The position numbers and the translations under genes were made by a program. A DNA stretch of 39,008 bases from a virus (lineage: Duplodnaviria; Heunggongvirae; Uroviricota; Caudoviricetes): positions 1 through 39,008 of the IMG/VR virus record IMGVR_UViG_2737471857_000016, one strand, 5' to 3'. The notes beneath the pieces are model-generated. The model was given only the letters and a program-made list of their open reading frames with translations. It did not search any database and was not told the origin of the DNA. Below, piece after piece: positions 7,509 through 33,901 of this stretch (positions within the stretch are counted from its first letter, which is position 1; the number at the start of each line of letters is the position of its first letter).

Positions 7509-7877
7509 TTAGTCAGCGAAGGTTAAGACGAGAATTACCTTAATGATGTCTGCTACAACAGACACGGCCATAGATAAACCAAAGACGATCCAAGCCACAG
7601 TGATGTCTTCACTACCATCGTATAGAGTTCCGTAATCACTGGTGTAAGGCGTAAATGTCGCGCCTTGATACAATAGGTATAAGCTTGATCCATAGAGGAT
7701 AAATGCAGATATCCCTTGTATTGCTATGATCACCAGAATCATGAAACGAGCTGATCTATGCGCCCAAGCCTGGCTTATTTTTTCTGATAGAGATTTCGCA
7801 ATAAAAGCATGCGCTAAGCCGTAAATTGTCGAGATTGCCAACATCCCAAAAAAGCTTGCTATAGCGGTTCCAACCAT
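7509..7877 (-). CDS. small polytopic membrane protein in rex position (122 aa; alt TTG start at 7898)
   Basis: Three to four hydrophobic helices; starts 17 nt after cI stop on same strand (alt TTG start overlaps cI stop), so co-transcribed with repressor. Confidence 0.6.
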   Translation of the reverse strand: MVGTAIASFFGMLAISTIYGLAHAFIAKSLSEKISQAWAHRSARFMILVIIAIQGISAFILYGSSLYLLYQGATFTPYTSDYGTLYDGSEDITVAWIVFGLSMAVSVVADIIKVILVLTFAD

Positions 7878-7894
7878 AATCGCCCCTTGCGTGA

Positions 7895-8611
7895 TCAAAC
7901 CAGCCTTAGTTTTGTCTCAATTGCAACGCCTATAATCTTGCAGTTTCCATTGATTGGCACGAGAGGCCATGCAGGATTAAGTCCCTTGAGGTATTTATTT
8001 CCGCCGTCGATTATCAGCTTCTTGAATGTTGCTTCGTTAGAGTCAGAAAGTTTTGCTATGACCAAGCTGCCGTTGATCGCCTCCCTTCCGGTATCGAAAA
8101 GAACGAATGTTCCCTCTGGAATGCTTAACCCAACCGGTGCCGTCATTGAATCACCTTCCACTTTAAGCCAGAACGCATTACCTTGAATATGCGCGTCAGA
8201 CTCAAGCCAAACATCTATGTCTTTAATGGTGTATGGTTCGCATGCTTCACACCACGAGCCAGCCTGGATACTGCTTAACACCGGATACCTCTTTCCTGCT
8301 CTGTATTCCCCTGCATACCTTACGTTGGCATCGCTCTTAAGGCTTTCTGCCTGTTCTGCAACCTTGGCAGCAATTGACTGGCTAAAATCAGCAATTGAGA
8401 CTTGCAACAAACGTGCAAAACCAGATGCGACCTCAACGTTTAGCGCGTTTCTGCCATTAAGATAATGCCCTACCGCTCCTTGGGTGATACCCAGTTCATC
8501 AGCGATTGAGTATTGGGTTATTCCCAATTCTTTCTTTTTTGACTCATACAAAGCCTTAAGCCGCTTAGCGTCTTCGAGCTGTTCTGTCGTCAGTGATTTT
8601 TTATTTTCCAT
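7895..8611 (-). CDS. cI: CI-type prophage repressor (HTH + S24 LexA-like peptidase domain)
   Basis: Strong resemblance to lambda CI throughout (LTQEQLEDARRLKA..., FWLEVEGNSMTAP... equivalents); divergent from cro across an operator region. Confidence 0.9.
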   Translation of the reverse strand: MENKKSLTTEQLEDAKRLKALYESKKKELGITQYSIADELGITQGAVGHYLNGRNALNVEVASGFARLLQVSIADFSQSIAAKVAEQAESLKSDANVRYAGEYRAGKRYPVLSSIQAGSWCEACEPYTIKDIDVWLESDAHIQGNAFWLKVEGDSMTAPVGLSIPEGTFVLFDTGREAINGSLVIAKLSDSNEATFKKLIIDGGNKYLKGLNPAWPLVPINGNCKIIGVAIETKLRLV

Positions 8612-32682: not shown

Positions 32683-32706
32683 CGTATGGGAAATTGGATT
32701 CAATCG

Positions 32707-33096
32707 CTAACATTTTCTTTTTACTTTTCCAACAAAAGCTTTGGTTGAATCCATATTTCCATAACCGGAAATGGTTTTTGACATTAAAACTGTTCCAGTA
32801 GGATGTATTACCCATGAGTCGATAACGCGTTGAGTTTCGCCATTCGCGCCGATTCCTATGATGGAGTTTTTAGACAATGCTTTGTAAGCCATGCCGCCCG
32901 CATCTGTCCCAGAATATGTGATGCTGGCATCTTCACCGTTTGTCTTAATGATGAATGTTCCACTAAAACCATCTTCTTCCGGATGGAAATTATTTCGTTC
33001 TGAATAGCTTATTCCGCGCATATCTCCAACGACCCAGCACTCTGCTGTAGCCCCAAAAGATATGAATAAGAACATAGCAGTAAGAAATTGCTTCAC
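32707..33096 (-). CDS. secreted protein of unknown function (129 aa, signal peptide)
   Basis: N-terminal signal peptide MKQFLTAMFLFISFGATA; AT-rich gene opposite to the late operon, immediately after gp16-like gene. Confidence 0.6.
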   Translation of the reverse strand: MKQFLTAMFLFISFGATAECWVVGDMRGISYSERNNFHPEEDGFSGTFIIKTNGEDASITYSGTDAGGMAYKALSKNSIIGIGANGETQRVIDSWVIHPTGTVLMSKTISGYGNMDSTKAFVGKVKRKC

Positions 33097-33213
33097 GCCA
33101 ACCTCCTTAGTTTTGAGCAGGATACCATGAAAAAAGTAAACATCTTTTGCCTACTTCACATTTGAATGGTTTGTCATTAGGATGTTTCCGGTTTTTTAAA
33201 TATGGAAATTGAT

Positions 33214-33633
33214 ATGAAGAGGATTATTGGCGTCGTTGCTGGCGCTATATTGTTATCTGGGTGCGCAACTATTGTTGGTGACGAAACGCAGCTTGTGCAA
33301 GTGAACAGCAATCCTTCCGGTGCGAGCTTTAAGGTAAAAGACGAATCAGGCGTGATTGTTGCGCAAGGTAAGACCCCGCAAGGAGTAACTCTTGCCAAGT
33401 CAGATGGTAGTTATTTTGGCAAAAAGAGCTACCAGATCACTATGGAAAAGGATGGGTACGAACCAGTTACCCTGCCAATCAAAGCCAATGCTAATGGCTG
33501 GTATATTGGTGGAAACCTTGTGTTTGGTGGGTTAATTGGTTGGCTTGCTGTAGATCCTTTTAATGGTGGGATGTATACCTTGAAGCCAAAAGAGGCAAAC
33601 GCATCTCTTATACCATCAACAAAGCAAGACTAA
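33214..33633 (+). CDS. lipoprotein with PEGA-like domain and C-terminal glycine-zipper segment (alt start 33202)
   Basis: Lipobox LLSGC after signal sequence; PEGA-like pattern (SNPSGASFKV…GKTPQGV…KDGYEPV); Gly-rich hydrophobic C-terminus GGNLVFGGLIGWLAV. Confidence 0.65.
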   Translation: MKRIIGVVAGAILLSGCATIVGDETQLVQVNSNPSGASFKVKDESGVIVAQGKTPQGVTLAKSDGSYFGKKSYQITMEKDGYEPVTLPIKANANGWYIGGNLVFGGLIGWLAVDPFNGGMYTLKPKEANASLIPSTKQD

Positions 33634-33640
33634 TAAATAG

Positions 33641-33668
33641 GACCCACCTTCAGGTGGGTTTTTTGTAC
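33641..33668. terminator. bidirectional intrinsic terminator
   Basis: ACCCACC-TTCA-GGTGGGT hairpin with T-run on plus strand and U-rich tract on minus; between lipoprotein gene and mnt. Confidence 0.6.
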
Positions 33669-33901
33669 AAATCCTTCAGCGTATCAAACACCATCTTCTT
33701 AACAAGCTCTGACTGCTCATCAGCGAGTCGTTCTGCATCGTCGCGATATCCAGTCACAGGCGATGGTTTTGATAGAGCATCTTGGACGATTTGTAACAAC
33801 TCGGAGTTCATTGATCTCCCATTCGCCTCCGCCCTGAATTTTAATTTCTCCCTTACTTCCATAGGCATACGGAAGTTAAAGTGCGGATCATCTCTAGCCA
33901 T
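33650..33901 (-). CDS. mnt: Mnt repressor (ribbon-helix-helix)
   Basis: 83 aa; sequence recognised as P22 Mnt (MARDDPHFNFRMPMEVREKLKFRAE...). Confidence 0.85.
   Translation of the reverse strand: MARDDPHFNFRMPMEVREKLKFRAEANGRSMNSELLQIVQDALSKPSPVTGYRDDAERLADEQSELVKKMVFDTLKDLYKKPT

Follow-up and report, generated by a model that had tools for sequence, protein, structure and literature searches.

Two independent cassettes for predicted envelope proteins between gene 16 and mnt of a P22-like Escherichia coli prophage: a 434 Hex relative in the sieA slot and a lipoprotein moron

What is encoded by two small divergent genes that lie between a DNA ejection gene and mnt of a P22-like prophage, where phage P22 itself carries the exclusion gene sieA, and do these two genes act together? 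The question is raised by IMG/VR virus record IMGVR_UViG_2737471857_000016 (Caudoviricetes), analysed over its positions 1 to 39,008; this whole stretch of 39,008 nucleotides is called the window hereafter. The window is a P22-like Escherichia coli prophage: it is 100% identical to a prophage in the chromosome of E. coli EC6622, where RefSeq has three DNA-transfer (ejection) genes, then two for hypothetical proteins and then mnt, arc, ant and the tailspike gene. We refer to the two hypothetical genes as gene A (minus strand; 129 amino acids, aa) and gene B (plus strand; 139 aa). A previous reading, made from the sequence alone, suggested one envelope-targeted module serving superinfection exclusion, receptor masking or another lysogenic-conversion function. 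Its two open reading frames (ORFs) are present and divergent as described, and the locus is the hypervariable part of a region already described for P22-like phages, the “ant moron”. This name was given to the segment between genes 16 and 9 by Villafane et al. (2008; PMC2629481), who characterised it as fast-changing, with 10 types in 16 genomes, and left genes 14 and 15 of phage epsilon34 without a function.

A and B are independent, separately mobile cassettes and not a functional pair, a conclusion that stands on much firmer ground than anything said below about their function. Out of 5,426 complete E. coli genomes, 147 carry A, 124 carry B and 45 have the two contiguous; about 50 joint occurrences are expected by chance when the population is taken to be the 363 genomes that match any part of the locus. 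A scan of IMG/VR contigs, done with a narrow alignment of A and returning mostly close relatives, gave 80 contigs with A, in which the nearest recognised upstream neighbour is mnt (36), B (20), an hkcC-type ORF (12) or the orf149/orf161 pair of phage Emek (eight). In 15 of the 36 mnt cases, A is directly beside mnt, with only some 360 bp and nothing else between them. Conversely, B is found next to slot genes other than A: an hkcB-like gene (epsilon34, E. coli C4), the gene of a 161-aa lipoprotein (prophage Gally of E. coli LF82 and vB_EcoP-720R6) and that of a 75-aa membrane peptide (Nord122); moreover, it occurs alone in siphovirus prophages and in chromosomes. Recombination joints are located at the start codon of A and within the intergenic region. 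The two-gene module of the sequence-only reading thus fails by the very comparison that this reading had named: the genes are not co-conserved.

The alternative neighbours of A of the Emek type, orf149 and orf161 of this Salmonella phage (L002:4066-4939), form an overlapping two-gene unit (PHROGs 1281 and 8366), the layout of which resembles that of a toxin-antitoxin pair.

Gene A is located where P22 carries sieA, as had been recognised before: both genes are on the minus strand, 24 nt (A) and 22 nt (sieA) after gene 16. The 50 bp of P22 that extend from the GTG start codon of sieA upstream through the ribosome-binding site (RBS) are 94% identical in the window, and the same leader precedes the epsilon34 gp14/hkcB-like gene (also in E. 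coli C4) and the gene of the 75-aa two-helix membrane protein of Nord122. As these alignments indicate, the coding sequence in the slot is exchanged exactly at the start codon, while the leader is retained. GTG and leader are common to A and to the SieA, hkcB-like and 75-aa genes; the gene of the 161-aa lipoprotein begins with ATG behind a diverged leader. On the plus strand, a short remnant, MKKVNIFCLLHI followed by a stop codon, has its first codons identical to those of the 121-aa ORF of P22 and E. coli CE20, and its frame closes at 33163-33165. An hkcC-type ORF diverges from sieA in P22 and is intact in CE20 (121 aa, PHROG 1365); the 12-codon remnant is, by this likeness, the mark of the joint where the B cassette replaced it.

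All the cargo seen right after gene 16 appears envelope-targeted: SieA with three transmembrane (TM) helices, the hkcB-like protein with an N-terminal TM segment and a coiled coil, the 161-aa lipoprotein with lipobox LLAGC, and the 75-aa two-helix peptide (L001:2680-3003, L004:2391-2876, L008:2780-3007, L106:1426-1920). The last three belong to PHROGs without an assigned function in a scan that left SieA out. Leavitt et al. (PMC10883804) reported that sieA is expressed from the prophage, that 85 bp of upstream sequence suffice for exclusion from a single copy, and that only 22 out of 66 P22-like phages carry the gene; what replaces it is not discussed there.

In a translated search of annotated phages, full-length matches to A with 27% identity were found directly downstream of cI in 434, lambda imm434, HK446, HK633, Sf6 (gene 38), Sf101 and others. 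The match in 434, annotated as “repressor protection protein” (L017:2501-2905), is Hex, whose name stands for heterologous exclusion. A profile made solely from the close relatives of A recovered Hex in an end-to-end alignment with 60.7 bits (E 6.6e-15 in a million-sequence space), and an exhaustive profile search yielded 126 clusters of A-type proteins, nearly all of 120-140 aa. On this evidence from sequence comparison, A is a member of the 434 Hex/Sf6 gp38 family (PHROG 2651 and relatives). One homologue with 46% identity adjoins an S24 repressor-cro module, and a distant family member (P0267) lies near an integrase gene on an environmental contig with uninformative neighbours. PHROG 2651, with its function unassigned, was the sole family match to A, with no Pfam, NCBIfam, PADLOC or PDB sequence match; a profile of 69 family sequences against the same library types returned nothing beyond PHROG families of unassigned function.

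The GTG start of A has a perfect Shine-Dalgarno sequence, AAGGAGG, 5 nt upstream. The RefSeq version begins at an internal ATG (122 aa; 32707-33075) and lacks the charged n-region, whereas the homologues keep the long form; start codon context and homologues together support 129 aa, and localisation predictions run on the 122-aa RefSeq protein may overlook the signal peptide. This peptide, seen already in the sequence-only reading, is a standard signal for signal peptidase I, with predicted cleavage between MKQFLTAMFLFISFGATA and ECW, and not a lipobox. A hydrophobic N-terminal segment is present in 69 of the 69 aligned family members, with Lys or Arg within the first eight residues in 67, and a Cys two residues past the predicted cleavage site is invariant among them. 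The mature proteins of this alignment contain two or four Cys (A itself two, most members four), and mature A is without a TM-grade segment (maximum Kyte-Doolittle hydropathy over 19 residues 0.77). A conserved N-terminal signal together with an even number of Cys is what one expects of proteins that are exported by Sec and form disulfides in the periplasm. In its structure model, A forms a small, closed beta-barrel whose structural neighbours are generic only.

For gene B, all homologues and the epsilon34 and RefSeq annotations use the ATG at 33214 and none the one at 33202. The A-B intergenic region is consequently 117 bp in length, not the 105 bp initially reported, with a guanine + cytosine (GC) content of 34%. 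B is 97.8% identical to epsilon34 gp15. Its lipobox LLSGC, also noted before, is conserved across 38 aligned homologues (36 by search pattern; the other two, LCSGC, by eye). A lipoprotein sorted to the outer membrane was defined by a lipobox [LVI][ASTG][GA]C behind a signal peptide and by a residue other than Asp at position +2, and B shows both; residues +2 to +4 are ATI (Ala-Thr-Ile) in 34 of the 36 pattern-matched homologues, and by the +2 rule B would be sorted to the outer membrane. The export signals of A and B thus support the envelope targeting that had been proposed for both.

The AlphaFold model of B contains the seven-stranded beta-sandwich of the transthyretin-like/carboxypeptidase-regulatory-like fold, with a core (residues 25-93; predicted local distance difference test, pLDDT, >90) of the transthyretin/CnaB/carboxypeptidase-regulatory type. 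The PEGA-like character ascribed to B holds at the level of this fold; the Pfam PEGA model (PF08308; residues 28-93) remained below its cut-off (17.6 against 20.8 bits, E 0.0037), and none of the B homologues has a precomputed Pfam domain. The most conserved part of the family is C-terminal, G-W-Y-x-x-x-N...G...D-P-x-x-G-x-M-Y...P, and the Gly-rich, hydrophobic nature of this end was correctly described. We rejected it as a true TM helix (maximum hydropathy 1.3, under the usual 1.6; low model confidence there), but the segment probably associates with the membrane. Outside the lipoprotein signal, scans with Pfam, PHROG and NCBIfam gave no sequence relation of B to Bor, Iss, Lom or Cor; the Cor models covered only the signal peptide, below cut-off (NF047972, residues 1-30, 11.7 bits against 31, E 0.19; phrog_1119, residues 1-20, E 0.0034).

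Relatives of B occupy several other phage slots. In HK97-like E. coli prophages, a relative with 68% identity, followed by its own terminator, lies between homologues of HK97 gp13 (63%) and of the tape-measure protein gp16 (81%, N-terminal part), i.e., in the exact slot of HK97 gp15. Another relative (78%), again with its own terminator, is inserted between the gpI and gpJ homologues of a lambda-like prophage and has in common with B of the window an upstream block, TTAGGATGTTTCCG(A/G)TTTTTTAAA. A third (71%) is upstream of the tape-measure gene in Proteus prophages. Those HK97-like prophages that have a B relative in place of gp15 contain, in addition, a gene for a porin (Porin_1/Porin_4) between tail genes M and L (L010 10261-11424, L012 10261-11424, L013 10270-11343), another envelope moron within a tail operon.

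A predicted sigma-70 promoter, TTCACA-17-TAGGAT, precedes B and agrees with the consensus at nine of 12 positions. Hexamers and spacing are kept in LF82 Gally and in 720R6 (TTCACG-17-TAAGAT), where they are the only conserved part of an otherwise diverged upstream region. Gally encodes an identical B protein (WP_000821222.1; LF82_139), the transcription of which can be read from the S1 and S4 tables of PMC9928086, given as log2(fpkm+5), fpkm being fragments per kilobase per million. LF82_139 stands at 6.2 and 4.8 in stationary lysogeny broth (LB), at 9.8-10.5 in Dulbecco’s modified Eagle medium (DMEM), and in macrophages at 11.0 after 1 h and 9.4-9.5 after 6 h, against about 3-4 in all conditions for the adjacent Gally ejection genes; the Gally slot-1 gene, which specifies a different lipoprotein, behaves similarly to LF82_139. 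High LF82_139 levels beside flat ejection genes imply that transcription of B takes place in the repressed prophage, does not depend on the late operon and varies with conditions. B combines what defines a moron in the sense of Juhala and Hendrix: presence/absence, alternative slots, own terminators, conserved promoter-like hexamers (predicted), and transcription in the LF82 lysogen. That B is a lipoprotein moron, a promoter-gene-terminator unit, is much better established than what it does, and the same holds for the place of A in the Hex family.

The features of the locus are collected in Table 1.

Table 1. Features between the gene-16-like gene and mnt, with positions in the window.
Feature	Position	Strand	Basis or remark
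Gene-16-like DNA ejection protein, 613 aa	30841..32682	+	ORF list; left edge of the variable region
Gene A, 129-aa predicted exported protein, 434 Hex/Sf6 gp38 family (PHROG 2651), in the sieA slot	32707..33096	-	
Part of A that codes for its signal peptide (residues 1-18), MKQFLTAMFLFISFGATA, with ECW following the predicted cleavage site	33043..33096	-	
sieA-type start codon, RBS (AAGGAGG, 33102-33108) and leader, common to several slot cargo genes	33094..33143	-	
hkcC-like ORF remnant (MKKVN...), 12 codons, recombination scar	33127..33165	+	
Predicted sigma-70 promoter of B, TTCACA-17-TAGGAT	33155..33183	+	Consensus scan
Gene B, 139-aa lipoprotein, epsilon34 gp15 family (PHROG 6823), transthyretin/PEGA-like beta-sandwich and conserved Gly-rich C-terminal segment	33214..33633	+	
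Lipoprotein signal peptide and lipobox of B, MKRIIGVVAGAILLSG followed by C	33214..33264	+	
Hairpin terminator common to B (+) and mnt (-), containing the mnt stop codon	33640..33665	.	
mnt repressor gene, right boundary and start of the immI region (mnt-arc-ant)	33650..33901	-	RefSeq annotation

The left neighbour is named [quoted passage not shown] in RefSeq (100% identity in EC6622), and on the right the mnt/arc DNA of the window is 97.7% identical to P22. The low GC content that had drawn attention to the region is real, though modest: 41.9% against 47.3% in the window, among the lowest 2.5% of 986-bp windows, with gene A at 40.8% and gene B, at 45.0%, near normal. For B, the ratio of nonsynonymous to synonymous substitution rates (dN/dS) is 0.03-0.04; for A it is about 0.3, most of the changes falling within the signal peptide. 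Such purifying selection on both identifies them as real genes rather than chance ORFs. The hairpin behind B had been called the lipoprotein’s own bidirectional terminator. In folding, and also as a scan match, it is good on the plus strand (-14.5 kcal/mol, followed by U6; z -3.45) and weaker on the minus strand (-12.0 kcal/mol; z -1.96). It is annotated as a terminator in the epsilon34 record. From 33642 onward, P22 has a sequence of 95% identity next to its own mnt, which places the hairpin in the conserved mnt boundary and not with B alone.

Some neighbouring features deserve mention. Directly after the S24/LexA-type repressor gene of the window (7895-8611, minus strand), and overlapping it by 4 nt, a gene at 7509-7898 (minus strand) encodes a multi-pass membrane protein of 122-129 aa (PHROG 6534), in the position taken by lambda rexAB and 434 hex but unrelated to Hex; its product is probably a second prophage-expressed envelope protein. 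In some versions of the A-B region (E. coli Nord122, L008:4201-4737, and several IMG/VR loci), mnt has a gene for a ClpP-like protease subunit directly upstream, oriented as in one operon; a ClpP-like gene also accompanies an Arc/Mnt-like gene in HK97-like prophages (L011 10809-11593). E. coli ET479 (NZ_CP100950.1, H48) has four separate places that match part of the queried region, which is single-copy elsewhere.

What, then, could the two proteins do? The explanation we favour, though by a modest margin over even, is that of two independent cassettes, each complete in itself, expected to be active in the prophage and encoding one envelope protein, rather than a two-gene machine, with A likely a periplasmic exclusion factor and B an exclusion or fitness factor. 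Within it, we infer the subcellular locations, the expression of A and both functions. The A cassette would have arisen by a swap of the sieA coding sequence, from the GTG on, for a Hex-family gene. In the lysogen, the sieA-type leader would drive the synthesis of A; the protein would then leave through Sec and, once cleaved behind ...ATA, become a periplasmic beta-barrel of about 12 kDa in which one probable disulfide joins the first and last residues. There it would protect the lysogen from other phages, probably P22-like ones, by blocking the DNA-delivery apparatus as it crosses the periplasm, where the ejection proteins of such phages must build a conduit. That A acts in exclusion is suggested, by analogy, by the homology to Hex, the exact replacement of sieA and the envelope proteins encoded by all the alternatives in the slot, and we put this role at slightly short of an even chance. 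Indeed, lambda imm434 lysogens of Salmonella exclude P22, and hex mutants do not (Susskind and Botstein 1980, cited in PMC3564112). B would be a lipoprotein directed to the outer membrane, transcribed in lysogens apart from the late operon, and would serve either exclusion, by masking a receptor or an entry route, or host-envelope fitness; exclusion is a possibility that we advance tentatively for B, with clearly less conviction than for A, and host fitness carries a similar weight.

Several observations weigh against this explanation. Only the proximal 50 bp of the 85-bp sieA promoter fragment are kept before A, no convincing -35/-10 pair was found upstream of A, and its expression is thus presumed from the leader. 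The model of A was confident in just one out of five prediction runs. At E <= 1, no family of the PADLOC-DB defence models matched either A or B. In stationary LB, LF82_139 reached 3.3 times the prophage median, under the fivefold cut-off for morons used by the authors (PMC9928086), and the DNA upstream of B in LF82 differs from that of the window outside the predicted hexamers. Members of the B family are also found as ordinary chromosomal, non-prophage genes, in Enterobacter and in a Kluyvera-like genome; this favours a general function in the envelope over one against phages. Lastly, the published mechanism of Hex (PMC3564112) is a cytoplasmic one, in which it blocks RecA-stimulated repressor cleavage, with no block at the envelope.

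The chromosomal homologues, which are close ones, lead to the best-surviving alternative, that B, and possibly A, would serve host fitness or virulence in the manner of Bor, Iss and Lom instead of acting against phages, by altering traits of the envelope that count inside the animal host, such as survival in serum, in macrophages or under stress. The very strong purifying selection on B and the lack of a PADLOC match are consistent with it, as is the rise of LF82_139 in macrophages relative to stationary LB (log2 fold change 3.84, q 1.4e-31), with levels already high in DMEM; but stationary LB differs from DMEM and macrophages in growth phase as well as in environment, so that the two are confounded in this comparison, and the LF82 study found no phenotype for the Gally morons (PMC9928086). 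Furthermore, in phages B recurs in known slots of exclusion genes (sieA, HK97 gp15), and its resemblance to Bor, Iss, Lom and Cor stops at the lipoprotein signal. We rate this alternative as unlikely, yet serious. Equally doubtful is an extension of our own explanation: Hex-family proteins in general might be soluble exclusion factors of the periplasm, intercepting the conduit through which P22-like phages deliver DNA across the envelope, and might differ from SieA in compartment and mechanism; the cytoplasmic RecA antagonism published for Hex might be incidental, brought about by a fragment in the wrong compartment; the sieA site might be a plug-in site, with a fixed start codon and leader, for SieA, the Hex-like A, the hkcB-like protein, the lipoprotein and the two-TM peptide; and B might constitute a second portable exclusion layer at the outer membrane.

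A second alternative takes A for a cytoplasmic repressor-binding factor, as published for 434 Hex, which would shield the repressor from RecA-stimulated self-cleavage and so stabilise lysogeny. Shkilnyj, Colon and Koudelka (PMC3564112) described hex as co-transcribed with cI in lysogens; its deletion caused lambda imm434 to be induced spontaneously about 30-fold more in recA+ cells, with no such effect in recA- cells, and a fragment, sHex, kept the 434 and P22 repressors from being cleaved under RecA stimulation in vitro. The window prophage, too, has an S24-type repressor. However, the 69 of 69 family members that keep the export signal, with the Cys near the cleavage site and two or four Cys in the mature part, speak for another compartment. 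sHex begins with Glu43 of the 158-aa ORF given by the authors; in our numbering, this is exactly the first residue past the predicted signal-peptidase site between MIRIAALLSILLTTSANS and ECW (…TTSANS before ECW). Overproduced full-length Hex was toxic; export is nowhere considered in that paper. The start of sHex at this site and the toxicity of the full-length protein suggest that native Hex is probably periplasmic. A periplasmic Hex would fit exclusion at the envelope better than a cytoplasmic action on the repressor, and the conserved export signal makes repressor protection by the native protein doubtful. A is, moreover, unlinked to the repressor gene and located in the sieA slot. We consider this alternative improbable.

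Least probable by far is a cooperation of A and B as a two-component envelope module that masks a receptor or blocks injection: adjacency, divergence from one short AT-rich region, envelope targeting of both products and their joint presence in 45 genomes and in 20 of the 80 viral loci speak for it, but each gene is commoner without the other and the joints separate them, so that the distribution given above largely refutes it.

The basic picture of the locus is unchanged by our results: it is an ordinary, previously described hypervariable moron region. The locus and its variability were known, B was catalogued in 2008, and the family of A has a named member, Hex; a literature search by protein accessions and locus tags of A and B returned nothing. 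New, within the literature searched, are the connection of the sieA slot with the Hex family, the export signal that is conserved in this family, the cassette exchange that is precise to the start codon, and the spread of the gp15-type lipoprotein over classical moron slots. Prophage genes for exclusion at the envelope shape the spread of phages in E. coli and Salmonella and are relevant to phage therapy. The locus shows what takes the place of sieA, present in only a third of the sequenced P22-like phages (PMC10883804). Hex, found by genetics in 1980 and poorly understood, is now tied to a family of 126 clusters with a predicted export signal and to the sieA slot, and the gp15-type lipoprotein emerges as a widely travelling moron, expressed inside macrophages in a strain associated with Crohn’s disease.

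Compared with known systems, A and P22 SieA have in common the genomic slot, the strand, the distance from gene 16, the GTG start and the 50-bp leader, and both appear to be envelope proteins of P22-like prophages. A lies, as SieA does, between genes 16 and 9 and runs leftward, a likeness of position only: there is no sequence similarity (best BLASTP E 1.4), and the FxRYPxEAxxFNK motif of SieA types A-C is absent from the sequence of A. SieA has three TM helices and no signal peptide, whereas A is predicted to be soluble and exported, with a mature part devoid of the three or four TM helices of an inner-membrane SieA (maximum 19-residue hydropathy 0.77 against 2.6). With 434 Hex and Sf6 gp38, A shares its size, an N-terminal signal for export with E-C-W-(V/I)-V behind it, an (E/D)(T/S)W motif and a K-x-F-V-G...C C-terminus; these proteins come from temperate lambdoid or P22-like phages and from slots expressed during lysogeny (presumably so for A). 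Hex is encoded directly downstream of cI on the PRM transcript, while A lies between gene 16 and mnt on a leader of its own, and the slot after the window repressor holds the unrelated multi-pass membrane protein. Hex is backed by genetics (exclusion of P22, recA-dependent effect on induction), whereas A is known from its sequence. Sim of phage P1 is a periplasmic protein, processed at a signal peptide, that stops phage DNA from reaching the cytoplasm. The sim gene is cited in PMC3564112 (ref. 18); A may be likened to Sim by analogy of mechanism only.

The epsilon34 gp14/gp15 region has B itself (gp15) in the same place beside mnt with the same terminator, and an hkcB-like membrane protein where the window prophage has A; in the 2008 account of epsilon34 (PMC2629481), the lipoprotein signal of gp15 and its other phage slots are unmentioned. 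Like B, Cor (phi80, N15, HK022), Llp (T5) and Bor (lambda) are small phage- or prophage-encoded lipoproteins. Located in the outer membrane, these three alter the surface of the cell. FhuA-dependent phages are blocked by Cor and Llp, and Bor confers serum resistance. B differs from them in that matches to the Cor models are confined to its signal peptide and a Bor match is lacking. HK97 gp15, the first named moron and an exclusion protein (PMC3594210), is a 62-aa inner-membrane protein related to YebO and has no sequence relation to the 139-aa lipoprotein B; what the two have in common is the slot between the tail chaperone and tape-measure genes, in which relatives of B reside, and their organisation as small promoter-gene-terminator units.

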